Positions 1 to 31,410 of a stretch of 64,000 bases of DNA are shown in pieces. A model generated the notes under the pieces. It was not told where the DNA came from, did no database searches, and saw only the letters and a program-made list of their open reading frames with translations. The stretch is from Fimicolochytrium jonesii (Eukaryota). The first letter of the stretch is position 1. Every line of letters starts with the position of its first letter. The stretch covers positions 1 through 64,000 of the forward strand of contig NW_026515669.1 of the NCBI RefSeq assembly GCF_025526975.1, read 5' to 3'. Both the position numbers and the translations under genes were made by a program.

Positions 1-1056
1 GGTATCGATCTCCCTGCCCTTCCCCTTCCCCCCTTTGGCAGCCTCCCTCTTTTCCTCAGCCCTCTTATGCGCCCATTCCCTCTTTGCCTTCACGGCTTTG
101 TCCTCAGCAAGCGTAAGGTCTATGGCCTTCAGCGGCTTCGACGTTGACGCTGAGGCTTTTGGCTTTGGCTTTGGCCACGACGACGACGACCACAACCTCG
201 TCCACGCCTGCTGGGTCCTCTTCAATTCGATCAGATGTTGACGTTTACGGTATTTGCTCCGCTCCAAAGTACTCAGCAGCTTCCGGAAGTACCGGACCAT
301 CCGAAACTATTTGTCAAAAAGAGAATCAATCATTGTGGAACACAAGCCAAGCTGAAGATTAACGGCTTTTTGAACGTCCCCCTCCCCGGAGACGTCAAAA
401 ACGGCTTTATCTTCAGCTTGGGTAACTGGAATGCGTTGAATGACAAACAAGTACTCACGTCGTCCTTGTTCAGAGTCAGACCCTTTGCATGCCGTTGTTG
501 CATGATGGAGTCTGAGAAGAGGGCGCTGATGTACGTCTCAGCGGCCTCCTGCAGGGCATCGACTGCCTCTTGGTACCAGCGATGCCTTTCAGAGAACGGC
601 GTCGCCTCCGGGGTTGTCGCGATGCTCTGATTGTGAGCCCGGGACACTTCATAGTCGATCTCCTCTATCAACTTCCTGAAGGGCAACTTCAGGATCACCG
701 ACCCATATGTATGGGCATAGTGTTTGATCTCGGCCTCTGCCGACTCGCCCGACCGATATCCGCCCCTTCTTCGTCGCAGAGTCAGCGCCTTCGGGAACGT
801 GGACTTTGGTGGATAACCAACCTGACGTACCAAGCTGAAGATTAGTGCCATTTTGAACCCTCTCCAGACCGGGGACGGCGAAAATCAAGGTTCTCTCAGC
901 TTGTTCAAAACCCACCTTCCAAGTTCCTGTGACATTATCAATTCTAGATTGGGGAATTAATGCAGGTCGATCTGGGCGATTTGGAAGACGGCGTGGAGCA
1001 TCCAAGGCCAGTTTCCTGGCAGAACCGGGCGGGGCAGGGGGTCGTGGGTTGACCAT
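1..1056 (-). CDS. Divergent histone H3-like (CenH3-like) protein with long basic C-terminal extension; 3' end runs off the window
   Basis: Predicted exons 1056-916, 821-459 and 306-<1, joined by phase-0 introns (GTGGGT..CAG 915-822; GTGAGT..TAG 458-307). Spliced protein: tail SARKLALDAPRR; core YRSGESAEAEIKHY..KLPFRKLIEEI..RWYQEAVDALQEAAETYISALFSDS..HAKGLTLNKDD|FRMVRYFR. This aligns with H3 YRPGTVALREIRRY..KLPFQRLVREI..RFQSSAVMALQEA.EAYLVGLFEDT..HAKRVTIMPKDIQLARRIR. Confidence 0.85.
347..421. repeat. Palindromic ~75-bp element, copy 1 (intron 2 of the H3-like gene)
   Basis: Arms ccaagctgaagattaacggctttttgaacgtc and gacgtcaaaaacggctttatcttcagcttgg are near reverse complements. Confidence 0.85.
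831..903. repeat. Palindromic ~73-bp element, copy 2 (intron 1 of the H3-like gene)
   Basis: caagctgaagattag...ttctctcagcttg; same termini and length as copy 1, with a more degenerate interior. Confidence 0.75.
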
Positions 1057-1134
1057 ATTCTGATGTTAATTGAGAAAAGGAAAGAAGAGGCCAACGATCG
1101 GAATATATTCAAAAATGGTATGATATGGAACATA

Positions 1135-2047
1135 TTATTCATCGGCTTCAGCATCCTTGGTCCTCTTCCGGCTATAGTATTCGGCCATTTGCTTCCGCCA
1201 TTCCTTCATCTGCTCCGTATTTTCGAAGATGTCCTCAGCCTCATCGATAACCTCGGACGAAGGGTTACGCATTCCCTCAACAACCGTGTCCTGGAAGGAC
1301 AACCATGGCTGGGAGTAGTCGCCTGGGGAGGGGGCGGTGGCTGCGGCGGTTGCGGTTGGGCCGATTGGCGGTGGCGGAAAGATGGGAGCATCCCATGTCT
1401 GATGGATGCTGTGTGCGATGGAGGCGCCTTTGCAGAGATGGCCAAGGGGGCATAGTGCGGTGTCGTCCCATGCTGGCAACATCCAATCCCTCAGCCTCTC
1501 TGCGTCCAATGGGTGGATCCTCAAGCAATCTGAAAGAAGAACACGGTTATTGTTATTGCCCTTCAACGCAGCAACAAAACAAAGACAAGCTGAGGTTTAT
1601 GCGATTTTTCGACGCGCGCACGCCGGGGACGTCGAAAAACGCATTAACCCTCAGCTTCTCGAGAAGATACAAACCCCCGACCCAATCCTTCCTCAGCATC
1701 ACCCCGTTGACCTGCTTCCCCTCGTGGTAGATGCGCGCCTCTGAATGCACTCGACAGAGGCTGAAGGCCGCCGCCGAGCGGGCACGCCTCTGCAGCGTCC
1801 TGATGTGCCTCGATTGGTCGAGTGACCACCAGTAAAACTCGACCTGGTGGCCATCGACCATGCGGGTAACGATCACTGGGTCGTAGAGGATCCAGAGGTA
1901 ACGGAAGACGGCGATCGTCGTCTCCGTCTCCTCCTGCCCCATCTGCCAGTGCATTTCTGACAGGTCGTACATGGCCATCCCCATATCCCCCTCCCCGTTG
2001 TCGTTGGGTCCCCGTCCCGTCGCCGAAGAAGAAGAAGCCATACTCAC
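1135..2047 (-). CDS. Hypothetical protein, probably two exons (~270 aa)
   Basis: ORFs 1553-2047 and 1135-1566 can be joined by a phase-0 intron ending TTGAAG at ~1561; the donor is uncertain. TATA-like TATATA at ~2331-2337. No recognisable domain. Confidence 0.5.
1586..1657. repeat. Palindromic element, copy 3 (predicted intron of the 1135-2047 gene)
   Basis: aagctgaggtttatgcgatttttcgacg...cgtcgaaaaacgcattaaccctcagctt. Confidence 0.8.
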
Positions 2048-2130
2048 TTATGATGAGGGCAGGGTGTGTTGGTATACCTAAACTTTCGAACAAACGTCAG
2101 TCACGTCAGTCAAGCTGTCGAAACTCCGAC

Positions 2131-2201
2131 AAGCTGAGAATAACGCCGTTTTTCGACGCTTTCCAGCCCTTCTGGTTCAAAAACACAATAATCCTCAGCT
2201 T
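2131..2201. repeat. Palindromic element, copy 4 (directly after a minus-strand GTAAGT donor; probable 5'UTR intron)
   Basis: aagctgagaataacgccgtttttcgacg...ttcaaaaacacaataatcctcagctt; acttac (= GTAAGT) at 2202-2207. Confidence 0.75.
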
Positions 2202-2686
2202 ACTTACAGTGCGTGGCGTTGCAAGGAGAGAAGAGAGACGGGGTGATGTGTGTGTGATGTGTTGAAGATGGCGTAAAAGTGCTGTGGAAAGCATAGGGAA
2301 AACGTGAGGGGGAGCGTCTGCAGGCTGTGTTATATATGACATCCTTTAATTGGGGGAGTGTGTGGAAGCTATTCATGAGGCTAATCTGTTGCCATAAAAA
2401 ATGAAAAATCGATTCCCCTAATCAATTGTTAAGTGTTATCATCAAAATCGAATTCTCTGTTAAATTGCGCGCATTGACGCGTCCATTCATATGGGATCAT
2501 ATGTGGTGTACTATGGGAAGCGTGTACTGTGAAGGCCAGTAACGCAAGACCAGTAACGCTTCTAGTAACGCAGTGTGACTCACACACATCGCGCTCACGC
2601 GCATTTCATTGTACCTACTACTAGGGCTTGTGCCCGCCGCTACGCCGCGGATTTAAATATATTCACAATGTAATAGTCAGAACTAA

Positions 2687-5600
2687 TCACAACAAAACTT
2701 CCTGATAGACTACATTACGGGTGCAATTCTGCAAGTGGGGAGAGGTACGGGGCGTAACTGGGAGCACACGCAATCCTTGAGCAGATGTTGTCCGGGAGAC
2801 AGCAACGTACAGCTGCCCATGGGTGAAAACAGGAGTTGGGAGATAGATTCCCACCCTCGCCAGGGTTTGGCCTTGGGATTTGTTGATGGTCATGGCGAAT
2901 GCTAACTGCACAGGGAATTGGCGTCGCTGTAGTGTGAATGGGAGTATTTTGGTTGCAGGCGCCAATGTAATCCTTGGGATGAACACCACATGACCAACAT
3001 GGGTGCCAGTGATGATCTCAGCTTCAATAACCCTCTGGCCGAGGCGCCGGACTTCCAGCCGGGTGCCATTGCAAAGTCCTGCAGCCTGGTTGAGGTTGCG
3101 GAGGAGGATGATCGGGGCGCCAACCTTAAGCTGCAGACAATGGGCAGGTAATCCAGGGAGGGTGACCGTATTGAGGAACTCGACAGGGTATAAGGCTTCA
3201 TGATTTTCCGGGCACTCCGGGCCGCTTGAAGGGACGGTGTCCGCACTGAAGTATTCTTGAAGGTCTCCTTCCGTTCTGTGCAGCATGGATGTGTTAACAG
3301 CGTGCACATCTTCATTCCTTGGGGACAGAATCGCCCTGTCTGTCCAGTACGTAGGAGATTCCTTTGAAGGCAGGTCACCATAGACATAGTGCAGAAGCCC
3401 GTCCAGAGTTCTGCCAGTCTCTGATAACAACACCTCCTCCGGGAGCAAAATCTAGTCATCCTCATGATCACCTTTCACAGGCTGTGCGGGTATCTTGCCA
3501 TCCCCTATATCCAGAATCCACTGTGGGAATGCTTTGGAAAAATCTGTTTCGTTGGCGTGAGCTGTTGAAGCGATGCGCATGTTTTGCGTCAACGTGAAGA
3601 CCTGGACAGTGTGCCAGAAGTTGGATCGTTGCACACTTGCTCCTACAGTTTCTTCACACCCGCCCTTGTAGATGACAGGGGGAATCTGGCGAAAGTCTCC
3701 CCCAAGCAGAACAACCTTCCCGCCCATAGATGCACTGCACTTGGTGATGTCTTGCAAGGTTCGTGAAACAGCTTCCAAAGCGTGCTTGTGCATCATGGGT
3801 GCCTCGTCCCAGACTATGAGCTCCGCCTCCCTTATCAATTCCGCATGATCAGATCGTGGGGAGATAGAGCAGGTAGATGTTTCCGTCAGGTCGATTGGGA
3901 TCTTAAACCGGGAGTGAGCAGTTCTACCCCCGTCCAGAAGCAGCGCAGCAATTCCTGACGACGCAACAGCAAGAACGATCTTGTTTTGGCTGCGAAGATT
4001 TGCGATGATTGTCTGGTACAGGAATGTCTTGCCAGTGCCCCCACTGCCATTGACAAAGAATATGTTTGGGGCTTTCTGCGTTACGGCGGAGGTGACATCG
4101 TTGAAAATTCTAGTTTGTGCCTCGTTGAGACATGGGATGGCCGTCTCAGCAAAGGCGGCCAGTTGCAGAATGTCGTACAATGTTTCCTCTTGTATCACCC
4201 TTGCAATTCTCCTACCCAGCATGGGTTGTCCTGTGAGTTTCGGGAGGGTTGGGAAGTCGCCAAGGTTCTTGCCGTTGCGTCGCAGTGTGCGATCCAGGTC
4301 AGCCAGAGCTTCATTCTCAATCTCTGGTGCTGTTATGGACCTGAATGCATATCCAGGGAGGAGGCGTATACGGTGTTCAATGTCGTCGCTGAGGTCCATC
4401 AAGAACTCTGCCCAGAGTTTTCCTGGTTGTGATACTTCGTTGAAGAGTAAGATTGCTGCGAAGAGCTCACGCAAACGGGCCCCTGATGCCCATGTGGCAG
4501 CTTCTCGTAAGGCATCAGCCCACTCCCGGTCATCTTGCAGCAGGCCTCTCGCTCGACAGGCATCTTTGAACGTGGAGTAGAGTTGTCCGTGCATACTGCG
4601 GAGATTCTCAAAGGAAGTAGCTCCCGGAACGTTGTTGAGAAGCAAGCGCAGGTAATATCGCTCCCCAGACGTTGGATGGGCAAAGTAAAGCCTGCCAATG
4701 GCAATGCCCTGCTTGCGGGGGTGCCATCTCTTGGCCTGCGCATCCCAGGTGTAATTCTGGGGAAAGTTAGGGTACGTTATGGTGCGATGTGCATTGTCCC
4801 CTTCAGCAGGAGTAGAATTGTAGGTAAACCATTCGGTCAGCGTGGTCTTCGCTGTAGCTGCACGGGCAAGGATGTCGTCTAACTGGTCGTCCTCAGTGAA
4901 GACAACATGGTGCTGCCCCGGTAAGTGCACTTGCAATCGCATCACTGCAGGATGTCGTCCATGCATCGGAAACTTGAACAGATGCCATGAGGCTTCCGCA
5001 GCTGAGACGTATCGTGAGTCAATGAACTGTTCAAGTTCATCAATGGGCTCTGGCGCTGAGGGCTCAGAGGTGTTCTCGGGATCAACACGCCTCTTCTTCT
5101 TCTTTGGGTTGGATGATTGAGAGAGGACCACCGTTGCCTTGTCATGGCCCTTGTATATGTATGTGAACAGGTATTTGACAGCAGTGATCTGGGTACATAT
5201 CTCCACATTGATGTGTGCGTCGTACCTCTCCAGGAGATACTTGTTGTGTGGGACCACCCAAGAGTTGTTGAGTTCAACACCTTGGACCTTCACAGTGCGA
5301 CCATTGTCCCTGCGCCGATACAAAGGGTATCCATTCACGTCGTTTGATGTTTCTTCCCTCAAAACCCTTGGATAGCGCTTTGAACACTTTCCTTCCTCCA
5401 TGCAGGGTGCGTGTGGATTGGCGGGACCACACGGGCCGTGCATCATCAAGGAGGCAACCCTGTGATAGTAGGCAGGAGAAGCGTCAGGTTCCGGTATCTC
5501 TGCGGACACAAATCTGTCCACATCCGCAGGTGTCACTGGTTGAGCATCCTTGTGAAGGGTGATCAAGATGTGTGCATGAGGTAAGCCACGCTTCTGGAAC

Positions 5601-7396
5601 TCGATCGTGTGGATGTCTGCAATGTGTAGACCGAAGATGTTCTTCTTTGTGAGGTCCTCCATCAACTTCTCTTGCTTCATTCGGAAGACCCGTGCGGTAA
5701 GGTCTGGCCTGTCGATATTTGTCTGTCCTTCCAACAGGGCGTCCTTAATTTCAGGCCATTGAGCGTTGCAGGTGAACGTTATCAGCAACGTTGGCTTCCC
5801 ACCCCAGCGTACTATGGCCATGGCATCTTGATAACTCTGCATCATCTGGCGTGGGCTGCCTTGGAAAGAAGAAGGCAGCACAATACGCTTGCCAAGGTTG
5901 GCAATGTTTGTTTCCCCGGATTCAAAGGCATCCTCAAGTCCTTGGTACAGATCAGCCCTTATGGTAGTCTGATTGTTGCGAATCCAGTTCAAGCGTCCCT
6001 GCTCGACAATCGCATAAGCATCCACAATGAATTGTTCCAGAAGTCGTCCACCACGGAGCAGAGCTATTCCATCTGCAACTCGGCGTTGCAACCGGTAGGA
6101 ATAGAACTCCGTAGCGGAAACGGTCCGTCGTTCCTTGCCTTTGCGACCTGGTGTTTTCTCACCCTGGCGGGGGCCAGGGGTTGAGTTTCGGAGAGGAATC
6201 AAGTGGTGCCATCCGTCTTCTCCGTGTGGAAAGAGCAACGGATATTGCAGGGGCATGTAGGCAGGGTGGCGCTCGGAAATCTCTTGTAGACCTCCTCCCT
6301 GCTTCTGAACAATGACTTGTCTTTTGGACACTGCCTCTGCACCATCTCCAACCATGATGGCGGCAACCTCGTCTGCAGTTGGGCAATTGTATCTTCGGCT
6401 GTCTGTTGTGCGCTCCAGAACTATCCTCATGGAGATATCGATGGCAGGATTTTCCGCAAGGATGTTGCGGACGGATCGGTAGACATGTGCGTATGGGTTC
6501 ACCTCATAAAGCATGTGTTGTAGTTCACCGATGATGTTGATGTCTGGTTTCTTTCCATCAAAGTGGCTGGCACGGTTTTCAGCTTCATGTTCTGTGTCGT
6601 AGATGTACATCTGTGCAAAGCGTGGTCGCTTCCCTGTTGCAATCTGTTGTTCGGATGGGAGAAGGCTTCCGATGTGGTGACATATCTGACCATGAACGCG
6701 GAAGGAGTACACTCCTTGGGTGCCGGTGACGCTCAAGTCAATGTCCGCACCAAGAGAGGTCCAAGCCAAGGATGAGTTGTATGAGCGTATGGCTTCCCGA
6801 AACTTCTTTGCGTGTGGTGAATTGGATGTCAGGAGATCACATAATGTTGCGGGAGTCGTCGGGAGTGGTGGTAAGAGGACTGTGCCTCTTTCACAGCAAA
6901 GGGAGAACTTGGGGTGTGCTTTTGAGGATGTCGCACAGCGCTCCAAGATCCACATGTGTGCGCCACAATCGATGCAGACAGTGTCGCAGCTCCCAGCTGA
7001 CCAATAATCGGTAATCAAGGTCGGGCGCAGAGCTGGTGGCAATGGCATGGGTTTTGCTGGTCGCTCTTGTCGCCTTTGACTCTGCAGTTGAGTTTGCCGA
7101 CGTGTGGTGTGTTTGAAGACATCGCTTAAATGTGTGAGGAGGCGATCCATGCATTGCCAGATGTATTTGAGACGTTCCTGTGATAGTGTGGGTGTGGTCG
7201 ATGCCTGTAGACTGGCACGGGCTGCCGCAACAACATCACCACCATGCTGGATCAGAAGTTCTTGCCAAAGGAGGGTGATGCGGTCTTGAACGTTTGAATG
7301 CAGGTGTGGACTTGAGGACACAAGAGTGCGGGCAGAAGAAGGTGTACTGATGAACATGAAGTATTGAATAGAATTGGAAAGAAATACATGGATCAA
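2687..7396 (-). pseudogene. Helitron Rep (HUH-Y2)/PIF1-like helicase with one in-frame stop
   Basis: Motifs [56 protein letters not shown] and [13 protein letters not shown] at 3452-3454 splits the same-frame ORFs 3452-7396 and 2687-3448. Confidence 0.93.
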
Positions 7397-7405
7397 TCTA
7401 ATGCT

Positions 7406-8948
7406 CTACATCAGGTCTAACTGGTATGACATGAAGGCGTCCACATCCAACATCAACTTTTGCGACGCCAGCAGCCTCTCAGTGATGCGGTTCTCATAAA
7501 CCTTCCGCAAGACAGCTGGGAGGACTTCGACCTCAGTTTTATGGACAGTCGCAGATGTCCAGCCGTCTAACTCTTCAGGCATGTAAACCCGGAAGGTGAT
7601 AGCCCCCAGTGGTAAGACGTATTCCCAACCAAGGTGCTTGTCGAAAAACCACATCCCACCATTTTCATCTAACATCTCCCACCCCACCTCACTGTCTACC
7701 CAAGACGGATGTTTGGCCGTGATGACAATGTCCGTGCTTGCCACACTGAGTACACACCTCAGAATGGGACCTGCATCAAATAGGCGACGGAAGTGGAGGG
7801 GGTCCTCATCTGGAGTGCTGTCGATACGTCTCTCGGGAAGGGGGTCAAGCGTCCAGGTTGCGGCAGGCATCTATCAAATGGAATCCAGTCAATGCATTGA
7901 ACAGTTGTAATTCACACAATCATATTTATTTTAGGAGAACTTCACACGTACATGGCCATTATTGTTTGCTTTGATGTAGTCAAGACAGAGACCTCTCGTA
8001 ATATCAGCTAAGTCGGTCTTCTGCTTAGGTTTGAGGGCAAGGGGGGTCTGTTTGAGCAGAACAGCTCCAATCTGGCGAAGCGTGTACCACAGGTCATTGT
8101 CGTTCTCAGCCGCCTTGCAGAGTTCCAGGAGGGATTGGCCAAACTCAGACTTGGGATCGAAGAGTTGCTTGTCCGACATTTCGGAAGACTCGGGAGGTCT
8201 GGGTGGCACTGTTGACAGCTGTATGTTCAGTCGATGAGGCCGCAGGGGTCGCCGCAGTTGTCGGGCTGGATTCAGTGGTGGTCGATGTGGTGATGGTACT
8301 GACAGAGGGCATATGCTGAGTAGTCTTGTTGGAGGGTGCATTGCGACGACGGGTCTTGGCAGGACGGGCAGGTGCGGTGGCAGTGGATGTTGGGCTGGTG
8401 GGAACTTTGCTGACAGGGCGAGGCGGGACAGAAGTTCCTGAAGAGGAGGCTGCAGGATCGGTGGTGGCAGAGAGTTTACGCTTGCGAACAGGCATAGGTC
8501 GGGTAGGCGAGGTAGGAGTAATGGGTGAGGTAGGAGTAATGGGCGAGGTAGGCAGGGTGGAACTATGTCGACGAACAGCATTGGCTTGGTCAGGGGTAAG
8601 CGACGGCGTAGGCATGATGGTGTTGGTGAGGGTGTTGGCAGCAGGATGATGGTCTGGGGTGCGGGGCGGGTTGGTGGTAATAGCAGGATTGGCGCTGGTG
8701 TGGTGATCTTTCGGAACGGGTGTGTTGGCGGATTTGACAGTGTCGGGAACGGTGATGTCAGCACTGTCAACAGTCATTCCGACAGGTGACAGTCGATTGG
8801 GAGGTCGAAGGTGGGCTGTCTGCGGAGGGCGATAGAAGTCTCCTTTGGTGGTAGGAATGGTGGGCGAGGGAGATTTGCATCTTTTGGGCATGGTGGAGGC
8901 TCTATGTGAAGAACAGAAAATATTAGCAAAAATATCCATCATTCGCAT
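7406..8948 (-). CDS. Helitron-borne accessory ORF(s) of unknown function
   Basis: T/P/S-rich ORF (8145-8948), then a helical-looking segment (7931-8200). A GTACGT..TAG intron links it to ORF 7406-7870. A frame change near 8170-8230 is unresolved. Confidence 0.4.
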
Positions 8949-11900: not shown

Positions 11901-12026
11901 CGTGGCTTTCCAAATGCCAAATGGTTGCCATTCAAGATGCGTCCGCAGCGTCGCGTTGCCATCCTTGTCTACATGCCGGATGCATGGGCACTCGCTCGTC
12001 CCACTGTGCAGGAGTGGGTTGACAAT

Positions 12027-12565
12027 TGTTATGGACGACGCGCCCATACCATAAGCTTACCTACTGACAGCCGCCAATGTCAACCGCCAAATGTCAAACG
12101 CCAATGTCAATGTCAATGTCAGTGTCAATGTCAGTGTCAATGTCAATGTCAATGCCACTCTCCCTCTCTCCCCTCATTTCGCCAATCCTCCCGCAATATC
12201 GCCACTCCTCCTCTCTCCTCTCATTTCGCCAATCCCCCCTCGGCTTCTCCACACCCCCCACTACTTCCCCATAGCCAGCAGCTGTAGCAATGCTCTCTAC
12301 GCTCGCCACGCACGCTCTAGGAGCATAGCTGGCGCCCCCCCAGTCCCCTCTTGTTGTTGTTGTTCTCTGATCTGCTGGGTTGCCTATCTATAAATAGCCG
12401 GCCTCTCTTCGTCCATTCCCTTCCTCCCCAGCAGATCAACACCAGTTCTTCTCATCTCCTGTTCTAGTCCTTGTTTCTTGTTTCGCCAATACAATCTCTT
12501 GTCGCCTATCACTCTCGCCCTGTCTTCTCTACTTTGCTTCCGCCTCCGTCGTCGAGATCATAACA
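12027..12565 (+). repeat. 5' LTR of element A
   Basis: TGTTATGG..CATAACA; (TGTCAA/TGTCAG)n tract ~12077-12153; TATAAATA at 12389-12396. Confidence 0.97.
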
Positions 12566-18309: not shown

Positions 18310-19621
18310 GGTGATTTGGCGTGGAGGTACAGCGGCTGGGGGTTGTTGAGCAGATCAAACTGTTATGAATGGGCGGAGCCGACGGAAATAGAGGCGACTT
18401 GTGGTGCAGGTTGTTGACAGGTAATGGTATTCAGACCGAAACAAGAACTAGAACAAGACTAGGAAGAACTGGTGTTGATCTGCTGGGGGATCAGGAAGTG
18501 GGGAGCTCAGGGGAGGCGGCTATTTATGTTTTTCTGGGAAGGCTGGGGAAGCGTGGGGAAGCAGAAGGGTACGGAATGAGAGGGAAGCCAAGAGAAGCGC
18601 CAAGGGTGGGGGAAGCATAGAAACAGAAGACTGGGGATGGGGTGGCTACGCCGAGGCTGTGGGCGGGTACGTGGGGAAGTATGGAAACAGAAGACTGGGG
18701 ATGGGGTGGCTACGCTGAGGCTGTGGGCGGGTACGTGGGGAAGTATGGAGAAGGGTTTGTAAGCGCCGAGTGTTGGGAGGTGTGGCTACGTGCGGCTGCG
18801 TGGAGAAATGAAGGCAGTGGCAGGTGTGGGGTAGCGCGGCTGCATGCGGCTGCGAGGTTTGGCAGATGTCAGGTTTTGACAGGGAATTGACATTGACTGA
18901 CTGTTGGGATGCTGTCATGAGGTAAGCGCATGGTATGGACGCGTCGTCCATAACACCCCAGCGACATCATCAAGATCCAAACTATTGGAACCTACCTCAC
19001 CGGCACTGCGCAAGCCTGGATGGCGCCCCTAGTCGAACGCCAAGATCACAGCCTTCAGGACTTCGATAGTTTTATCAGCCAGATGCAATCGGTCTTCGGA
19101 GACAGCGACAGGGTCCGCACCTCTGAAAACAAGCTCCAGAACCTTCGCCAAACCCGTGCAGCAACCGAGTACGTTGCTGAGTTCCGCCAGCTACAATGCG
19201 ATGTCTCCTGGAACGACCAGGCCCTGATTGCTACCTTCCACCGTGGCCTCAAAGAAGACGTCAAAGACCTGATGCTCACGATGCCCCCTGCGGCCACCAT
19301 TGATGTGGTGATGGAGCAGGCTATCCAGTGCGATAACCGGCTGTTTGAGCGCCGCCTGGAGCGAAACAGAAGCCGCCAGACCTTCCCGGTTCCCCATACC
19401 TCGTTTACTACTACCACCACTGTCGACCACAGCGAGCCTATGCAGATTGATGCCGCTCGTCCCCGCGGCCCTCTGAGCCCTCAGGAACGCCAACGCCGCA
19501 TTTCCAACAACCTCTGCCTTTACTGCGGTGGCGCGGGGCACATTGCAAAAGTCTGCCCCGTCAAGAACAAGACCACCACCCGAGCCGCCAACGTCGACAT
19601 CAAAGAACCCTCCACCGAACA

Positions 19622-22600
19622 GGGTTTTCCCAAAGTCCAGCCGCAGTAAAGCCCCAGCGACTGGACAACACACACCGCCCCGGGCCTCCTAACCTCGCAG
19701 CTCCTGCAACGGGAGAGGCCACCCCCCTGGTTCCCGACTCCGTTATAGCCAACACAACCCTCCTAGCCGCTGCCCATGTCGAAAACTCCGAAATTAACCC
19801 CCGCGCCATGCTTGCGCTGGGTCCCCTCAAACCCTTCAACTACCCCGTTACCATCATGGTATCATCCAGCCGCGCCCCGGTACCTACCTCAGCCATGATC
19901 GACAATGGTGCCCTGTCCTGCTTCATCGACACAGACTTTGCCCGCAAACACCGCATCGCCCTAGTCCCGCATCAGCGTCCACTGACGATCGAACTCGTTG
20001 ACGGTCAACCCAGCTCTGCTGTGCCAATCACCCATCACACCCAACCAGTAGGCATGTGGGTCGACGACCACTTCGAAGAACTCGTCTTCCATGTCACCAA
20101 ATCACCCCATGCTCCAATCCTCCTTGGTCTCCCCTGGCTCCGCCTTCACGACATTAACCTTGACTTCAAGAACCTTTCGGTCGGTTTCCGTTGCGACTGT
20201 CTGTATCATGAATTCGCAAATTGGGACAACTCTCCAGCACCCCCGAGCCCAGCACCCGCCAGAACCCCCGAGCCCTTGATCCGCATCCCCCAGGATGAAG
20301 TCCCCGTCGACGAAACATGGTCGATTCCAGTACCCAAGGTATCTCGCTCCAGCACCCCAGAACCGGCTCCCACGCCGCTCCAAGTCTCGTTCATCTCCGC
20401 CCCAGCCTTCCGGGTCGCAGCAAGGCATGACCAGGTCTTTGTCGCCTACGCCAACCCTGCGAAACCCAATCTCCCGGCCTCGCCTAGCCCCAGTAAACCC
20501 CCGACACCCGAGAAAGACATCAAAGACTTCCTGCCCCCCGAGTATCGAGACTTCGCCGACGTTTTCGAAAAGAGAAATGCTGACACTCTCCCCGAGCACC
20601 GGCCCTACGACTGTCCAATCGATCTGGAAGAAGGCAAGCAGCCACCTTTCGGCCCGATCTACAGCCTCAGCGAACCAGAAACTGAAGGCACTCTGCGAAT
20701 ACCTCGAAGAAAACCTCGCCAAAGGATTCATCAAACCCTCAAAGTCCCCTGCCGGTGCGCCAGTCTTATTCGTGAAAAAAAAGGACGGTTCTCTCCGCCT
20801 CTGCGTCGATTATCGAGGCCTGAACAGCATCACGGTGAAGAATCGCTACCCCCTGCCCCTGATCAACGGTATCATGGATTGTTTGCGCGGCGCCCGCCGT
20901 CTCACCAAGATCGACCTCCGCGGCGCTTATAACCTCTTACGCATGCGCCTGGGCGATGAATGGAAGACCGCCTTCCGCTGCCGCTACGGCCTATTCGAAT
21001 ACAATGTCATGCCCTTTGGACTCAGCAATGCTCCTGGCGTCTCCCAGTACCTGATGAACGACATCTTCCGCGACATTCTCGATGTGTTTGTTGTCGTCTA
21101 CCTCGACGATATCCTGATATTCTCCAAGAACCCCGAAGATCACCCCAAACATGTCCGCGAAGTCTTGTCCTGCCTCCGACAGCATGGGTTGTACGCCAAA
21201 CCCGAGAAGTGCGAATTCAACCGCGAATCCGTTGAGTTCCTAGGCTTCATCATCTCCAAGAAAGGCATCCAGATGGACCCCAAGAAGATCGCTGCCATCA
21301 CGGATTGGGAACCTCCCAAGAATGTCAAAGGCGTCCAGCGGTTCCTCGGCTTTGCCAACTTCTATCGCCGATTCATCCAAGGCTATTCCAAGATCGCTAC
21401 CCCGCTCACAGCCCTGACCCGGAAAGACATCCCGTACGCCTGGACACCCGCCGCAAACACCGCCTTCGAGAACCTGAAGAAAGCATTCACCACCGCCCCC
21501 ATCCTTGCTCACCCTGACCCAGAGAAGCCCTTCGTCGTCGAAACTGACGCCTCCGACTTCGCTCTTGGCGCAGTTCTCCTCCAACCTGACCAGGACAATC
21601 AGCTCCACCCCTGTGGCCTTCCACTCTCGCAAATTCACGGCCGAAGAGATCAACTACGAGATCTACGACAAGGAACTTCTGGCCATCCAAGACTCCTTTG
21701 CCCAGTGGCGCCACCATCTCATTGGCGCCCGTCACAAGATCACCGTTTACTCCGACCACAAAAACCTTCAGTACTTCATGACCACCCGCACCCTGAACCG
21801 CCGCCAAGCCCGCTGGTCGATATTCTTCTCGGATTTTGACTTTGTCATTACCTATCGCCCCGGTTCCCAGCAGCACCAAGCCGATGCCCTCTCCCGACGC
21901 TCCGAACATGAGCTAAAAGAGGGGGAAGAAGCGTTCCGCTCCCAGGCAACCACAATTTTGACTCCCGAACGCCTTCGACTCGCGGCTGCCTACCTCACAC
22001 CCATGGATACCACGCTGCTTGACAAGATTAAGGCCGCCCAGGCCTCTGATCCCCCTCGCTAAGACCATTCGCGAAAAGCTCAAGATACCCCTCGCCCAAC
22101 GAACTGAGGAAACCCAAGATCGTATCAAGCGGTTCTCAGATGAAGATGGGATCCTGCTGCACGATAACCTGGTCTATGTCCCCACCAACGAGCTCCGAGC
22201 TGAAGTCTGCCACGACATGCACGATACTCCCCTAGCCGGCCACTTTGGGATGTCCAAGACGCTCGAACTCGCCTCCCGCAACTACTGGTGGCCCAGCCAG
22301 TGGCGCTTCGTCAAGGCCTACGTCAAGTCCTGCGATACCTGTAGCCAAGCGAAATCCAGTCGACACAAACCATACGGCCTACTCCAGCCCAACAGTATCC
22401 CTACCCGCCCTTGGGGATCTTGGTCCCTGGACTTTATCACCGGTCTGCCTCCCGTGGACGGGTACGACTCCATCCTGAACGTCAACTGTCGCCTCACCAA
22501 GATGGCCCACTTCATCGCCTGCAGCGAGTCAGAATCCGCCGAATCCACCGCCGACCTAGTCTTCCACAACATCATCCGTCTCCACGGCCTCCCCGACGAC

Positions 22601-23536
22601 GTCATCTCTGACCGAGGACCCCAGTTGAAGTCCCGGTTCTGGCGTCGACTTCTCGAACTCCTTGGGGCAAAAGCCAACCTCTCCTCGGCCTTCCACCCCC
22701 AGAGCGATGGCCAGACGGAACGCACCAACCAGATCCTGGAGCAGTATCTCCGATGCTTTTGCAACCACCAACAGGACAACTGGAAACAGCTTCTGTCGTC
22801 CGCCGAGTTTGCCTACAACAACACCCATCAGTCCGCCTCCCAGACCACCCCCTTCTACGCCAACAAGGGTCTCCACCCCCGCTTCAGTTTCGCGGCCTCT
22901 GCTACCTCCGAATCCGTCAACCCCGCCGCTGAAGCCCGCGCTAAACAAATCAGGGAAGTCCATGAACAGCTCGCCCTCGAGCTCAAGGAAGCCCAAGATC
23001 AAATGAAGCGCTACGCCGACGCCAAACGAATTCCTGGACCGGACTTCAAGCCTGGCGACCACGTCTGGCTCCTCCGCAAAAACCTCCAGACAACCCGGCC
23101 CTCTCAGAAACTCGACCATCGCAAGATTGGGCCATTCCCCATCGTTGAAAAAATCAATCCCGTCGCCTACCGGCTCAAGCTCCCGCCTACGAACAAAATC
23201 CACGATGTCTTCCATGTCTCGCTCCTCGAACCCCGCTTCACCATCCCCGAACGACACGAACCCGAACCCGCGCCCCCAGAGACCGTTGAGGGTCAAGAAG
23301 AGTGGATTGTCAAAGCCATCCTTGACTCCCGCATCCATCGTCGTCGCCTTCAGTACTTGGTCAAATGGCAGGGCTGGCCTGACTCTGAGAACACCTGGGA
23401 GCCCGTGGAACACCTCACCCATACCGATGCACTCCTCCAGGACTTCCACAGCGCGTACCCCAACAAGCCTTCCTCTGTCCCTGTAGCGCCTCCTCTGCGG
23501 CCACACCAAACTCGGCACCGCCGCCGCCGCCGCTAA
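19622..23536 (+). pseudogene. pol: Element A pol (protease, RT, RNase H, integrase, chromodomain)
   Basis: [25 protein letters not shown] core and chromodomain; frameshifts near 20680, 21610 and 22050. Confidence 0.95.
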
Positions 23537-26500
23537 AGAGAGGGGTGATGTTATGGACGACACGCCCATACCATAAGCTTACCTACTGACAGCCGCCAAT
23601 GTCAACCGCCAAATGTCAAACGCCAATGTCAATGTCAATGTCAGTGTCAATGTCAGTGTCAATGTCAATGTCAATGCCACTCTCCCTCTCTCCCCTCATT
23701 TCGCCAATCCTCCCGCAATATCGCCACTCCTCCTCTCTCCTCTCATTTCGCCAATCCCCCCTCGGCTTCTCCACACCCCCCACTACTTCCCCATAGCCAG
23801 CAGCTGTAGCAATGCTCTCTACGCTCGCCACGCACGCTCTAGGAGCATAGCTGGCGCCCCCCCAGTCCCCTCTTGTTGTTGTTGTTCTCTGATCTGCTGG
23901 GTTGCCTATCTATAAATAGCCGGCCTCTCTTCGTCCATTCCCTTCCTCCCCAGCAGATCAACACCAGTTCTTCTCATCTCCTGTTCTAGTCCTTGTTTCT
24001 TGTTTCGCCAATACAATCTCTTGTCGCCTATCACTCTCGCCCTGTCTTCTCTACTTCGCTTCCGCCTCCGTCGTCGAGATCATAACAACAATACACGCTC
24101 CCCGGTGAGGCAGATCTTCTGGAACGCTATGCTTTGGTTATTCGACAAGGCCATCCCGCTAGCTCTCGATCCATCCACCCTCTTGGCTGGTGTCTCCACG
24201 GATCCGTATAAGGATGTTTTGAGACGCCTTCTGACTATGTTTGTACGCTTTCAAAAGCGTAACTACATCACCTTGACGTACTTTTTGCTTGGCTCATTGG
24301 GTATGTTGGTAATATTCCATTTCAATGCTTCAACTTGGCTAATGTATGCCTTCATGTCCAGAGTCTGGAAGGCTGCCCCCCAAGATTATTCCGCACCTAT
24401 CCAGCGAGGATATGGAGGTCTTCAACTCCGTACTCCGTAATGCAACACGACATCAGGATACTCACGACCAAGTCGCCCGGAAAGCTCTCTACCTCACGGC
24501 GACAAACGTCTCCGTCACTCACAGCCTTGCATCATTCACGAATGTACAGCAACTCGAGAGCGCGCTCGAGTTCGAACAACTCGGTCTCACAACTTACCGT
24601 CGACGTTCGGGCTCGGACAAGCGCCGTTCTGATTTTGAGCACACAGATTCTGACGCTGTGCAACAAAAGAGGCAATTCTTGACATCTTTGATGGCTTGAA
24701 GGGGAAGTTTGAGATTGCGTGCGGGCAGGGATCAAAAGACGTGGTGCTGGATGGGGATCAACCGAAAGAGCGACAAGCAGAGTCCTCCGTTGATTTCAAA
24801 GGACGTTTGGTATATGAGTTGCGCCCAGCATCTGCGGGTGGTCAAGGGAAGCGACCTGCACTCATTTTTTCCATCCCAGAGGCTCTCCTTCCACCACAAG
24901 TCTGGTGCGCATCCAAGGTACGCGGAAACACATTCATCGACATCGAAAAGTTTCAGTCACGTCCTCCGTTGGCCATGCGGGAGCCAAGGCCGGTCCGTCC
25001 CCTCAGAACACCATCGGCAACTCCAACCAACTCCCCAGCTCATGCAGCAACGCCGATTTGTCTCGTCTTGAGGGGCAATACAGTACGCAAGCTCCCTGCG
25101 GGCATGCCGTTAACTCCATCGCCATCCGATGCGTCGACACCGAAAACACCCCCTACCCAACAATCCCCGTTGGACATCCCAAACCATACGGCCTACTCCA
25201 GCCCAACCGTATCCCTACCCGCCCTTGGGGATCTTGGTCCCTGGACTTTATCAACGGTCTGCCTCCCGTGGACGGGTACGACTCCATCCTGAACGTCAAC
25301 TGTCGCCTCACCAAGATGGCCCACTTCATCGCCTGCAGCGAGTCAGAATCCGCCGAATCCACCGCCGACCTAGTCTTCCACAACATCATCCGTCTCCACG
25401 GCCTCCCCGACGACGTCATCTCTGACCGAGGACCCCAGTTTAAGTCCCGGTTCTGGCGTCGACTTCTCGAACTCCTTGGGGCAAAAGCCAACCTCTCCTC
25501 GGCCTTCCACCCCCACAGCGATGGCCAGACGGAATGCACCAACCAGATCCTGGAGCAGTATCTCCGATGCTTTTGCAACCACCAACAGGACAACTGGAAA
25601 CAGCTTCTGTCGTCCGCCGAGTTTGCCTACAACAACACCCATCAGTCCGCCTCCCAGACCACCCCCTTCTACGCCAACAAGGGTCTCCACCCCCGCTTCA
25701 GTTTCGCGGCCTCTGCTACCTCCGAATCCGTCAACCCCGCCGCTGAAGCCCACGCTAAACAAATCAGGGAAGTCCATGAACAGCTCGCCCTCGAGCTCAA
25801 GGAAGCCCAAGATCAAATGAAGCACTACGCCGACGCCAAACGAATTCCTGGACCGGACTTCGAGCCTGGCGACCACGTCTGGCTCCTCCGCAAAAACCTC
25901 CAGACAACCCGGCCCTCTCAGAAACTCGACCATCGCAAGATTGGGCCATTCCCCATCGTTGAAAAAATCAATCCCGTCGCCTACCGGCTCAAGCTCCCGC
26001 CTACGAACAAAATCCACGATGTCTTCCATGTCTCGCTCCTCGAACCCCGCTTCACCATCCCCGAACGACACGAACCCGAACCCGCGCCCCCAGAGACCGT
26101 TGAGGGTCAAGAAGAGTGGATTGTCAAAGCCATCCTTGACTCCCGCATCCATCGTCGTCGCCTTCAGTACTTGGTCAAATGGCAGGGCTGGCCTGACTCT
26201 GAGAACACCTGGGAGCCCGTGGAACACCTCACCCATACCGATGCACTCCTCCAGGACTTCCACAGCGCGTACCCCAACAAGCCTTCCTCTGTCCCTGTAG
26301 CGCCTCCTCTGCGGCCACACCAAACTCGGCACCGCCGCCGCCGCCGCTAAAGAGAGGGGTGATGTTATGGACGACACGCCCATACCATAAGCTTACCTAC
26401 TGACAGCCGCCAATGTCAACCGCCAAATGTCAAACGCCAATGTCAATGTCAATGTCAGTGTCAATGTCAGTGTCAATGTCAATGTCAATGCCACTCTCCC

Positions 26501-29500
26501 TCTCTCCCCTCATTTCGCCAATCCTCCCGCAATATCGCCACTCCTCCTCTCTCCTCTCATTTCGCCAATCCCCCCTTGGCTTCTCCACACCCCCCACTAC
26601 TTCCCCATAGCCAGCAGCTGTAGCAATGCTCTCTACGCTCGCCACGCACGCTCTAGGAGCATAGCTGGCGCCCCCCCAGTCCCCTCTTGTTGTTGTTGTT
26701 CTCTGATCTGCTGGGTTGCCTATCTATAAATAGCCGGCCTCTCTTCGTCCATTCCCTTCCTCCCCAGCAGATCAACACCAGTTCTTCTCATCTCCTGTTC
26801 TAGTCCTTGTTTCTTGTTTCGCCAATACAATCTCTTGTCGCCTATCACTCTCGCCCTGTCTTCTCTACTTCGCTTCCGCCTCCGTCGTCGAGATCATAAG
26901 AACAATACACGCTCCCCGGTGAGGCAGATCTTCTGGAACGCTATGCTTTGGTTATTCGACGAGGCCATCCCGCTAGCTCTCGATCCATCCACCCTCTTGG
27001 CTGGTGTCTCCACGGATCCGTATAAGGATGTTTTGAGACGCCTTCTGACTATGTTTGTACGCTTTCAAAAGCGTAACTACATCACCTTGACGTACTTTTT
27101 GCTTGGCTCATTGGGTATGTTGGTAATATTCCATTTCAATGCTTCAACTTGGCTAATGTATGCCTTCATGTCCAGAGTCTGGAAGGCTGCCCCCCAAGAT
27201 TATTCCGCACCTATCCAGCGAGGATATGGAGGTCTTCAACTCCGTACTCCGTAATGCAACACGACATCAGGATACTCACGACCAAGTCGCCCGGAAAGCT
27301 CTCTACCTCACGGCGACAAACGTCTCCGTCACTCACAGCCTTGCATCATTCACGAATGTACAGCAACTCGAGAGCGCGCTCGAGTTCGAACAACTCGGTC
27401 TCACAACTTACCGTCGACGTTCGGGCTCGGACAAGCGCCGTTCTGATTTTGAGCACACAGATTCTGACGCTGTGCAACAAAAGAGGCAATTCTTGACATC
27501 TTTGATGGCTTGAAGGGGAAGTTTGAGATTGCGTGCGGGCAGGGATCAAAAGACGTGGTGCTGGATGGGGATCAACCGAAAGAGCGACAAGCAGAGTCCT
27601 CCGTTGATTTCAAAGGACGTTTGGTATATGAGTTGCGCCCAGCATCTGCGGGTGGTCAAGGGAAGCGACCTGCACTCATTTTTTCCATCCCAGAGGCTCT
27701 CCTTCCACCACAAGTCTGGTGCGCATCCAAGGTACGCGGAAACACATTCATCGACATCGAAAAGTTTCAGTCACGTCCTCCGTTGGCCATGCGGGAGCCA
27801 AGGCCGGTCCGTCCCCTCAGAACACCATCGGCAACTCCAACCAACTCCCCAGCTCATGCAGCAACGCCGATTTGTCTCGTCTTGAGGGGCAATACAGTAC
27901 GCAAGCTCCCTGCGGGCATGCCGTTAACTCCATCGCCATCCGATGCGTCGACACCGAAAACACCCCCTACCCAACAATCCCCGTTGGACATCCCAAACCA
28001 TACGGCCTACTCCAGCCCAACCGTATCCCTACCCGCCCTTGGGGATCTTGGTCCCTGGACTTTATCAACGGTCTGCCTCCCGTGGACGGGTACGACTCCA
28101 TCCTGAACGTCAACTGTCGCCTCACCAAGATGGCCCACTTCATCGCCTGCAGCGAGTCAGAATCCGCCGAATCCACCGCCGACCTAGTCTTCCACAACAT
28201 CATCCGTCTCCACGGCCTCCCCGACGACGTCATCTCTGACCGAGGACCCCAGTTTAAGTCCCGGTTCTGGCGTCGACTTCTCGAACTCCTTGGGGCAAAA
28301 GCCAACCTCTCCTCGGCCTTCCACCCCCACAGCGATGGCCAGACGGAATGCACCAACCAGATCCTGGAGCAGTATCTCCGATGCTTTTGCAACCACCAAC
28401 AGGACAACTGGAAACAGCTTCTGTCGTCCGCCGAGTTTGCCTACAACAACACCCATCAGTCCGCCTCCCAGACCACCCCCTTCTACGCCAACAAGGGTCT
28501 CCACCCCCGCTTCAGTTTCGCGGCCTCTGCTACCTCCGAATCCGTCAACCCCGCCGCTGAAGCCCACGCTAAACAAATCAGGGAAGTCCATGAACAGCTC
28601 GCCCTCGAGCTCAAGGAAGCCCAAGATCAAATGAAGCACTACGCCGACGCCAAACGAATTCCTGGACCGGACTTCGAGCCTGGCGACCACGTCTGGCTCC
28701 TCCGCAAAAACCTCCAGACAACCCGGCCCTCTCAGAAACTCGACCATCGCAAGATTGGGCCATTCCCCATCGTTGAAAAAATCAATCCCGTCGCCTACCG
28801 GCTCAAGCTCCCGCCTACGAACAAAATCCACGATGTCTTCCATGTCTCGCTCCTCGAACCCCGCTTCACCATCCCCGAACGACACGAACCCGAACCCGCG
28901 CCCCCAGAGACCGTTGAGGGTCAAGAAGAGTGGATTGTCAAAGCCATCCTTGACTCCCGCATCCATCGTCGTCGCCTTCAGTACTTGGTCAAATGGCAGG
29001 GCTGGCCTGACTCTGAGAACACCTGGGAGCCCGTGGAACACCTCACCCATACCGATGCACTCCTCCAGGACTTCCACAGCGCGTACCCCAACAAGCCTTC
29101 CTCTGTCCCTGTAGCGCCTCCTCTGCGGCCACACCAAACTCGGCACCGCCGCCGCCGCCGCTAAAGAGAGGGGTGATGTTATGGACGACACGCCCATACC
29201 ATAAGCTTACCTACTGACAGCCGCCAATGTCAACCGCCAAATGTCAAACGCCAATGTCAATGTCAATGTCAGTGTCAATGTCAGTGTCAATGTCAATGTC
29301 AATGCCACTCTCCCTCTCTCCCCTCATTTCGCCAATCCTCCCGCAATATCGCCACTCCTCCTCTCTCCTCTCATTTCGCCAATCCCCCCTCGGCTTCTCC
29401 ACACCCCCCACTACTTCCCCATAGCCAGCAGCTGTAGCAATGCTCTCTACGCTCGCCACGCACGCTCTAGGAGCATAGCTGGCGCCCCCCCAGTCCCCTC

Positions 29501-30807
29501 TTGTTGTTGTTGTTCTCTGATCTGCTGGGTTGCCTATCTATAAATAGCCGGCCTCTCTTCGTCCATTCCCTTCCTCCCCAGCAGATCAACACCAGTTCTT
29601 CTCATCTCCTGTTCTAGTCCTTGTTTCTTGTTTCGCCAATACAATCTCTTGTCGCCTATCACTCTCGCCCTGTCTTCTCTACTTCGCTTCCGCCTCCGTC
29701 GTCGAGATCATAACAACAATACACGCTCCCCGGTGAGGCAGATCTTCTGGAACGCTATGCTTTGGTTATTCGACGAGGCCATCCCGCTAGCTCTCGATCC
29801 ATCCACCCTCTTGGCTGGTGTCTCCACGGATCCGTATAAGGATGTTTTGAGACGCCTTCTGACTATGTTTGTACGCTTTCAAAAGCGTAACTACATCACC
29901 TTGACGTACTTTTTGCTTGGCTCATTGGGTATGTTGGTAATATTCCATTTCAATGCTTCAACTTGGCTAATGTATGCCTTCATGTCCAGAGTCTGGAAGG
30001 CTGCCCCCCAAGATTATTCCGCACCTATCCAGCGAGGATATGGAGGTCTTCAACTCCGTACTCCGTAATGCAACACGACATCAGGATACTCACGACCAAG
30101 TCGCCCGGAAAGCTCTCTACCTCACGGCGACAAACGTCTCCGTCACTCACAGCCTTGCATCATTCACGAATGTACAGCAACTCGAGAGCGCGCTCGAGTT
30201 CGAACAACTCGGTCTCACAACTTACCGTCGACGTTCGGGCTCGGACAAGCGCCGTTCTGATTTTGAGCACACAGATTCTGACGCTGTGCAACAAAAGAGG
30301 CAATTCTTGACATCTTTGATGGCTTGAAGAGGAAGTTTGAGATTGCGTGCGGGCAGGGATCAAAAGACGTGGTGCTGGATGGGGATCAACCGAAAGAGCG
30401 ACAAGCAGAGTCCTCCGTTGATTTCAAAGGACGTTTGGTATATGAGTTGCGCCCAGCATCTGCGGGTGGTCAAGGGAAGCGACCTGCACTCATTGTTTCC
30501 ATCCCAGAGGCTCTCCTTCCACCACAAGTCTGGTGCGCATCCAAGGTACGCGGAAACACATTCATCGACATCGAAAAGTTTCAGTCACGTCCTCCGTTGG
30601 CCATGCGGGAGCCAAGGCCGGTCCGTCCCCTCAGAACACCATCGGCAACTCCAACCAACTCCCCAGCTCATGCAGCAACGCCGATTCGTCTCGTCTTGAG
30701 GGGCAATACAGTACGCACGCTCCCTGCGGGCATGCCGTTAACTCCATCGCCATCCGATGCGTCGACACCGAAAACACCCCCTACCCAACAATCCCCGTTG
30801 GACATCC
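22366..30807. repeat. Tandem triplication of a 2814-bp unit (integrase 3' part + LTR + transposase 3' part)
   Basis: Units 22366-25179, 25180-27993 and 27994-30807; junction ..ttggacatcc|caaaccatacgg.. occurs twice. Confidence 0.95.
23549..24087 (+). repeat. 3' LTR of element A (further copies at 26363-26901 and 29177-29715)
   Basis: Near-identical to 12027-12565; two differences spotted. Confidence 0.97.
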
Positions 30808-31259
30808 ATCCTGCCAACAGGCCACGAGGCAGCCGCCCGCCGCTTTCTGAGGATAGCAAACTTCCCACGCTGCAGTTCGTGGGTGCAAAGACTTCCGAAA
30901 ACAACGCAGGGGAATGCTCGAACTGTGTCGCCCTTCTGGAACACATTGGAGTACAATCTCTCCAATGGCTGCAAGGAAATTTAGGGGGCAAGGGCCGCAG
31001 GGTGGCAGAGCAACATGTAGCAAAAGACAAGGAAAATGTCCCCCCCCCCTTTAGATAGGTCAGCAGCCCCTTAACATAGTCAAAAACGCTTTTTTCACGT
31101 CTTCGTCAATCGTGTTTTTATTAGAAGAAGTTTACGTACCTTTCCCATGTACCGCTGCGACGGTTACCCCTTTTGTATTGCACCCAACTTCACAAGTTTC
31201 ATTACAATCATATGCATATTAACGGCGGCCCAACCATGCTACACAAGTTTTGAGTTCAA

Positions 31260-31410
31260 CGATTTTGCCCAAAAAATCAGATCGTCTATGGAGAAGTCAC
31301 AAATGCACATATGAAAGGTGCCTCAAATTTCGCTGGGAGTCAGAATCATAAGCCAAAAAGGGCTCCCAAGCATTTGATTGCAAGTTAATATGTACGTTAT
31401 GAAATGGCTA
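31260..31410. mobile_element. Candidate right terminus of the Academ-like element
   Basis: AT-rich non-coding stretch after the transposase ends ..GAAATGGCTA (5'-TAGCCATTTC on the minus strand). No partner terminus found in the window. Confidence 0.3.

Follow-up and report, generated by a model that had tools for sequence, protein, structure and literature searches.

The start of contig NW_026515669.1 of Fimicolochytrium jonesii, a chytrid of the order Spizellomycetales, raises the question of whether a divergent histone H3-like gene, an orphan gene and a transposase-like gene that lie there together belong to one transposon. The window analyzed is the first 64,000 nucleotides of this contig, and the original prediction had read positions 1-31410 as a large Academ-like DNA transposon encoding its own H3-like protein. 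We found that the stretch 1-31514 is best explained, with a probability of about 0.7, as a nest of independent insertions and not as one transposon: the transposase gene belongs to a cargo-free cut-and-paste transposon of 3.96 kb, and the H3-like and orphan genes are located outside it and are likely the cargo of a different mobile element.

Ends of the transposase element

The transposase gene, located on the plus strand in two parts (10083-12026 and 29721-31058), is enclosed by two terminal inverted repeats (TIRs) of 29 bp. The left TIR at 9855-9883 (plus strand) starts with CTCAGGGCAACCC, and the right TIR at 31478-31506 (minus strand) matches it at 27 of 29 positions (blastn, E 1e-6). Of 21 seeds obtained when 1-12026 was compared with 29716-36000, this pair alone gave an exact inverted match of more than 12 bp. 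The TIRs are flanked by two plus-strand copies of a target-site duplication (TSD) of 8 bp, CAGATCTT, at 9847-9854 and 31507-31514. This exact direct repeat was found solely in the 9855/31506 register; neighbouring registers gave either no match or matches of 2-6 bp due to the palindrome AGATCT within CAGATCTT, and of 2,000,000 pairs of 8-mers drawn at random from the window, 35 agreed. The element thus has the TIRs and TSD of a class II transposon, as seen at one insertion, and an exact 8-bp duplication around such inner TIRs is the footprint that an independent insertion would leave. Using tblastn with five full-length relatives, we confirmed the split transposase gene, and every match fell within 10218-30653, inside the TIRs.

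After removal of the nested DNA, the TIR element measures 3958 bp, taken up by the transposase gene, whose start codon is 200 bp from the left TIR and whose stop codon is 420 bp from the right one. The 3958 bp between the TIRs contain no helicase or nuclease gene, so that the element is cargo-free; it may be a non-autonomous deletion form. Its movement would have been DDE cut-and-paste transposition with an 8-bp staggered cut of the target.

Subtracting a Helitron, two long terminal repeat (LTR) elements and extra tandem copies, all described below, reproduced the compact divergent arrangement on which the original prediction was built, and with the Helitron subtracted the start codons of the orphan and transposase genes are about 0.84 kb apart, close to the claimed intergenic distance of ~0.8 kb. 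The TIR element begins inside this supposed intergenic stretch and parts the transposase from the histone gene. The claim that the two form one element was therefore not supported, because the TIRs and TSD at 9855/31506 leave the H3-like and orphan genes out; the window copy of the transposase element ends before the histone gene (TIR at 9855), which the original prediction itself had named as a finding that would speak against it. Its right end at 31410 was not upheld either, as a search of the window for the reverse complement of this end, allowing up to 5 mismatches, gave no partner; one may lie upstream of the window.

One alternative is a single large element with the H3-like, orphan and transposase genes that moves by its outer ends; in this case the 9855/31506 repeats would be internal or would stem from a later re-insertion. 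The compact divergent layout and the multi-copy H3-like gene are consistent with it, as is a left end falling outside the window, and hAT elements with a transposase, an orphan open reading frame (ORF) and an H3-like gene (H3L) have been described (PMC3538342). We consider it improbable, because the inner TIRs have an exact 8-bp duplication around them, the 31410 end is without a partner in the window, a palindrome found in the introns of the H3-like and orphan genes is restricted to this unit, and a second annotated transposase copy was not seen: the transposase N-terminus had no annotated copy among deposited proteins of 470-2000 aa, and the 90% cluster of the window transposase has one member.

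The H3-like gene, the orphan gene and their introns

The H3-like gene is located at 1-1056 on the minus strand, with predicted exons at 1056-916, at 821-459 and from 306 to past the window start. Just ahead of its start codon, 1057-1134 contains a pyrimidine tract, a branch-like motif and CAG. The protein matched the Pfam family Histone (E 2e-13), and its best PDB sequence matches were chains of histone H3 and Cnp1, the latter in third and fifth place, so the gene is H3-like as claimed. Across 80 aligned residues, the histone fold in exon 2 shares ~42% identity with H3. Loop 1 has 19 residues versus 2 in H3, a 17-residue insertion; Q68, F84 and T107 are replaced by R, W and S, H113 is kept, and R49 and R63 are lost, while R116 is G in the window copy and R in the other four copies. 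A longer loop 1 and the loss of Q68, F84 and T107 are CenH3 traits, and by these criteria, as we understand them, the protein is of CenH3 type in loop 1 and at the three residues. Its predicted tail is without the canonical H3 start, and the predicted third exon would add 102 aa or more to the C-terminus, a basic extension with 29 K/R. The window copy corresponds to the deposited model P0045, which has intron 2 in common with our model and differs in start and end, so that the tail and the C-terminal extension remain predictions. The modelled exons of the window copy are free of stop codons.

We searched deposited proteins of 66-212 aa and obtained three clusters among 27 candidates, all from F. 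jonesii. The gene has five annotated copies on five contigs of 2155, 1788, 814, 690 and 72 kb; the four other copies, on the 814-, 690-, 72- and 1788-kb contigs, are 92-93% identical to the window copy. The records of the five are KAI8825556, KAI8821330, KAI8819536, KAI8815532 and KAI8824525. These five copies on five contigs suggest that the H3-like gene is likely carried by mobile DNA, and to this extent the original prediction was right, the single-copy state that it had named as a refuting finding not applying here. Four differences set the window copy apart from all others. Another 17, deduced from protein onto the window codons and with one change common to two copies counted twice, are private to the other copies; 13 of them are C>T or G>A, 8 at CpG. 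The other copies are apparently decaying by C>T changes, as repeat copies do, a pattern that deamination of methyl-C would produce. No relative outside F. jonesii was found among 27 and 493 candidates in low-sensitivity searches; the H3-like exon drew no match among long proteins, and a scan of viral contigs with it gave nothing.

The H3-like gene could instead be a host variant, the CenH3 of this species or a stage-specific H3, that was amplified by segmental duplication and has the nest beside it by chance or through heterochromatin. The loop 1 insertion and the changes at Q68, F84 and T107, if as diagnostic as we take them to be, point in this direction, together with the rank of the Cnp1 chains, the chromodomains in both LTR elements and the stop-free exons of the window copy. 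A CenH3 is expected to be single-copy and conserved in relatives, whereas here there are five copies and, at the low sensitivity of our searches, none outside the species; dispersed copies with mostly deamination-type missense changes behave as repeat copies. To our knowledge, a long basic C-terminal extension such as the predicted one is not a CenH3 trait. On balance we regard a host variant as unlikely and prefer cargo of a mobile element.

The orphan gene, at 1135-2207 on the minus strand, consists of an ORF pair directly upstream of the H3-like gene, as claimed. It is predicted to encode 253 aa from exons 2041-1675 and 1529-1135 and to have an intron at 2207-2078 in its 5' untranslated region (UTR). 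Its stop codon is 79 bp upstream of the H3-like start on the same strand, and the exons of the two genes might be spliced into a single transcript or protein by way of an acceptor at about 1060. No Pfam family matched below E 0.06, and the ESM Atlas gave only matches under 0.9. A YkuD reading of exon 2 (1138-1527) was not accepted, as its ESM Atlas values of 0.78-0.83 to bacterial L,D-transpeptidase clusters are below the trust level. Upstream of the gene, 2538-2571 (plus strand) contains three copies of AGTAACGC, the sole copies in the window, which are a candidate promoter or subterminal motif of the H3/orphan unit.

We found that each predicted intron of this unit contains an imperfect palindrome of 71 bp (AAGCTGA-N57-TCAGCTT). 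The four copies are located at 349-419 and 832-902 (introns 2 and 1 of the H3-like gene), at 1587-1657 (the orphan coding intron) and at 2131-2201 (the predicted 5'-UTR intron). The palindrome was thus present in 4 of 4 predicted introns of the H3/orphan unit versus 0 of 5 transposase introns. A pattern scan of the 64 kb returned exactly these four matches, also when 3 mismatches were allowed, and 100 shuffles gave none; the pattern was built from the same four copies, so the scan tests absence elsewhere. With respect to a link between H3-like gene and transposase, adjacency alone speaks for it, and the TIR/TSD boundary and this intron difference speak against it. The first 7 bases and TTT at positions 20-22 are invariant in all 8 half-sites, whole copies are identical pairwise at 39-49 of 71 positions (55-69%) with constant length, and the distance to the splice site varies from 6 to 39 nt on the 5' side and from 10 to 57 nt on the 3' side. 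In the annotation of two other H3-like copies, the intron is read through and the translated palindrome appears in the protein, which indicates that the palindrome is part of the repeated unit and older than its spread, and that the H3/orphan unit would have spread as one piece. The element carrying this unit would likely continue to the left of the window.

The constant length combined with variable spacers suggests that the palindrome is a protein-bound DNA site. An RNA hairpin or an old miniature inverted-repeat transposable element (MITE) or introner is also possible. RNA-fold z-scores of copies 1-4 were -5.7, -1.2, -6.5 and -3.7; among the non-Watson-Crick pairs 7 are G-U versus 3 A-C, and at positions 15-18 pairing is missing from 14 of 16 cells. 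A comparison of 1-2700 with Rfam was negative. The terminal AGCT can be read as a 4-bp TSD of a MITE, but such an origin would call for one insertion in each of four adjacent introns with the remaining 62 kb left untouched, which is difficult to account for. The A/T profile of the half-sites (n = 8) correlated with a 10.2-bp phase (r 0.39, column-shuffle p 0.009, uncorrected for relatedness and autocorrelation), and 14% of the 35-mers of the window fit as well as the palindrome consensus, so nucleosome phasing is only hinted at. The pattern matched nothing in viral contigs and had 0 matches in metagenome contigs. The fixed-length palindrome in all four predicted introns of the H3-like and orphan genes is the new feature of this locus and provides a concrete candidate cis site, which the accessible text on published transposon-borne H3 genes does not mention.

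Based on these sequence features, we tentatively propose that the H3 variant may pair with host H4 and act on the chromatin of its own element, with the palindromes as putative sites to which a protein of the element or of the host would bind; this is possible, although the odds are against it. A more specific version has a still smaller chance of being correct: an undescribed chytrid element would encode its own H3 variant and mark all its introns with a 71-bp dyad site, the variant or the orphan protein would be loaded there, and host silencing would be evaded. A length of 71 bp is about that of the DNA held by an (H3-H4)2 tetramer.

The transposase family and the surrounding insertions

The 5' part of the transposase gene encodes a Cys-rich N-terminus, the first and second acidic motifs and a DxxH motif, and the 3' part encodes the conserved glutamate motif. 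The encoded protein is 99% identical to the deposited protein P0004. Judging from the two LTR insertions and a single frameshift near 11220-11240, the window copy is probably dead or nearly so. Using phmmer against 1.84 billion representatives (E 0.001), we found 24 relatives, of which 17 are from chytrids (F. jonesii, Phlyctochytrium arcticum, Nowakowskiella, Quaeritorhiza and Thoreauomyces). P. arcticum has four clusters with 3-5 near-identical members each, mostly on separate contigs, which is the pattern expected of a mobile family. The contigs carrying the relatives P0006, P0007 and P0011 measure 3.7-4.8 kb, near the 3.96 kb of the TIR element.

Conserved in the family alignment are a DD motif that follows a strand, the motifs GDF and DxxH, and a glutamate motif near the end. 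The window copy is disrupted; the fold was taken from an AF2 model of P0006 (pLDDT 73.6, pTM 0.76). The predicted structure aligned best with Hermes (Z 11.1, rmsd 6.3, 286 residues aligned) and the P element (Z 11.1, rmsd 6.8, 356 aligned), followed by ISCth4, RAG1 and Transib, with 9-11% identity in the structural alignments. Foldseek with the same model found nothing at E 0.001 in the pdb or viral libraries (best E 0.02), and a PDB sequence search with the family profile gave no match at E 1. The transposase is thus predicted from the model to be of DDE type, with an RNase H-like fold, an acidic triad and a helical insertion. The ESM Atlas gave no usable match for a transposase exon, and a scan of viral contigs with the transposase core gave nothing. 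In metagenomes, one locus (L001, 3075 bp) carries a relative; it has no visible ends and is filled by the transposase, so it is no test of cargo. This relative (L001:200-2950) looks intronless and frameshifted.

The Academ assignment was checked against DUF6589, which we take to be the Academ transposase. It matched 0 of 5 transposase pieces of the window, 2 of the 24 relatives at E 0.028-0.036 and 3 of 16 further ones at E 0.036-0.075, one of these three in a different profile region; all matches scored 12-14 bits versus a cut-off of 27. The original prediction was therefore partly borne out, in that a DDE transposase is present, with DUF6589 faintly visible in a few relatives, and partly not, in that the scores are below the cut-off, the TSD length disagrees and there is no helicase or nuclease. 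The element may be a distant Academ relative, with membership unproven. An Academ element with a histone was not upheld, the TSD measuring 8 bp, a helicase and nuclease being missing and the histone lying outside the TIRs. Membership in hAT was not supported either: no hAT Pfam family was found in the window pieces or relatives, and agreement with hAT is limited to the 8-bp TSD and the overall fold.

The Helitron, the LTR elements and the tandem copies of the original prediction were recovered. The minus-strand Helitron at 2621-9822 measures 7202 bp, has TC...CTAG ends and is inserted between A and T. A single stop codon (3452-3454) interrupts its RepHel frame, and the edge of the Helitron is 24 bp left of the 8-bp duplication. 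The 5' part of the Helitron (7406-9700) has further predicted exons, with frames of 154, 268 and 280 codons, a possible captured or accessory gene; no Pfam match was found in the two frames scanned. The insertion points of the Helitron and the TIR element, 24 bp apart (9822-9855), are within a TATA/initiator-like stretch.

The Helitron could itself have carried the H3/orphan unit, if rolling-circle transposition passed the CTAG end at 2621 and carried both genes with it as far as a second 3' end beyond the left edge of the window. Read-through capture of this kind at the 3' end is established Helitron behaviour, and both genes are directly downstream of the Helitron 3' end, on its strand. Gene capture is also mentioned in PMC10799480. 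The complete end at 2621 and the canonical A|T site are, however, equally the footprint of a simple insertion, the CpG ratio is 0.65 in the Helitron versus 0.92 in the H3/orphan unit, and a Helitron-borne H3 was not found among the matches listed in the literature search. We give this explanation little credence.

Two nested Ty3/chromovirus-type LTR elements with chromodomain integrases follow. The outer one (12027-29715, plus strand; 539-bp LTRs, TSD ACAAT) interrupts a transposase exon, and the inner one (12944-18955, minus strand; 595-bp LTRs, TSD CCCCA) is within the outer gag. The inner LTR pair has 2 differences, and since the LTR pairs differ at just 2-4 positions, both insertions are recent. 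The two elements are related, with 13494-18068 and 18955-23593 73% identical in opposite orientation and the LTR starts sharing 45 bp at 87-89%. The tandem copies are three units of 2814 bp at 22366-30807 (plus strand), each composed of the integrase end, an LTR and a 3' piece of the transposase, with 6-13 differences from unit to unit; the triplication may be an assembly artefact. Little microhomology is visible at its junction between integrase and transposase DNA, and the outer LTR is thereby present in four copies.

To the right of 31514 are host genes for a family-3 GPCR-like receptor, an enoyl-CoA hydratase, a beta-eliminating lyase and an ABC transporter. The receptor gene (31850-37600), with seven transmembrane segments and Ig-like and LamG-like extracellular domains, directly adjoins the transposon. 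Between them, 31620-31740 contains a short inverted match (GGTCTCC/GGAGACC) around two GC-rich hairpins. With the Helitron and the TIR element removed, the TATA/initiator-like stretch at their insertion points runs on into 31515-31850, which may belong to the H3/orphan unit.

Several points weigh against the nest of independent insertions. The AGATCT in the TSD allows an alternative reading with 36-bp TIRs and no TSD, which could apply, and which likewise sets an element boundary between histone and transposase. The terminus of the H3/orphan unit itself was not found within the window, and the exon models are splice-signal predictions with which P0045 disagrees at both ends. The missing annotated transposase copies are a weak argument, as copies could hide in the 50% cluster of P0004 or among repeat-masked genes, and a transposase may stand beside the other four H3-like copies, the flanks analyzed being those of the window copy. 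CpG depletion fails to tell the parts of the nest apart, the ratios being 0.79 and 0.91 in the transposase and 1.02 on the host side, next to those given above.

Comparison with known systems

A TSD of 8 bp is found in the P element. It is also the length in hAT, Zisupton and Dileera (PMC6710886, PMC12730594), and thus a trait that the TIR element has in common with all four. The fold predicted for its family, of RNase H type and containing a large insertion of helices, is likewise similar to Hermes and the P element, tied as best matches. Unlike hAT, P and KDZ transposases, the 40 family sequences scanned contain no such Pfam domain, and structural-alignment identity is 9-11%. With Academ, the element has in common the TIRs, a DDE transposase and recurring sub-threshold DUF6589 matches; AcademH and AcademX have TSDs of 9-10 and 3-4 bp, respectively, and are tied to a helicase or nuclease (PMC10045372), in contrast to the 8-bp TSD here and neither gene between the TIRs. 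The distribution of Academ in fungi has been described (PMC5751038, PMC10799480). The TIR element supplies ends and a TSD for a chytrid transposase family below every Pfam cut-off and, if correctly delimited, would be the first member of an unclassified chytrid DDE lineage to be fully described in its anatomy, with CT..AG ends, an 8-bp TSD and no cargo.

Cargo genes acting on chromatin are not new: TET/JBP genes are carried by fungal transposons of 11 lineages (PMC12730594), and H3-like genes carried by hAT elements have already been described in ascomycetes. The original prediction knew of no histone in Academ-type elements, and H3-like cargo has been published in hAT elements instead (PMC3538342, PMC6710886). 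In Pyrenophora tritici-repentis, H3L, a central ORF and a hAT transposase lie between one TIR pair (Manning et al. 2013, PMC3538342). As there, the chytrid gene is a divergent H3-like gene that fits neither H3 nor CenH3 fully, is beside an orphan ORF and has many dispersed copies; it differs in being outside the neighbouring TIRs, in the 17-aa loop insertion and in the predicted long basic C-terminus. Histone H3 was amplified by hAT elements in Pseudocercospora fijiensis and relatives (Dhillon et al. 2019, PMC6710886), also with transposon-spread copies decaying by C>T and with 8-bp TSDs. Those copies derive from canonical host H3 and were killed through RIP (repeat-induced point mutation) at CpA, whereas here the identity is ~42% and the changes are CpG-biased. 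A dispersed and far more diverged chytrid H3-like gene would be an independent case of a mobile histone.

For the palindromes, the sister (stw)introns of Hypoxylaceae, which have internal symmetry with terminal repeats of 45-55 nt and occur in many genes (Fekete et al. 2021, PMC8469720), are similar in being related fungal introns with internal inverted symmetry. They differ from the present ones, in which the palindrome is 6-57 nt off the splice sites, does not vary in length although copies are 55-69% identical, and occurs, within the window, solely in one two-gene unit. A chytrid mobile histone or a 71-bp palindrome was not found at title and abstract level among the matches listed, in a search that left subscription journals and Repbase outside. 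The nearest parallel in function is VANC, which binds 9-bp motifs in tandem arrays in VANDAL introns and non-coding regions (Hosaka et al. 2017, PMC5735166). Both cases combine a transposon's own motif in introns with a chromatin-acting protein, here a candidate known from sequence, and they differ in that the putative chytrid site is a single 71-bp dyad-symmetric one per intron. If the H3 variant is loaded at these sites, it would be a histone-based counterpart of the VANDAL/VANC system.

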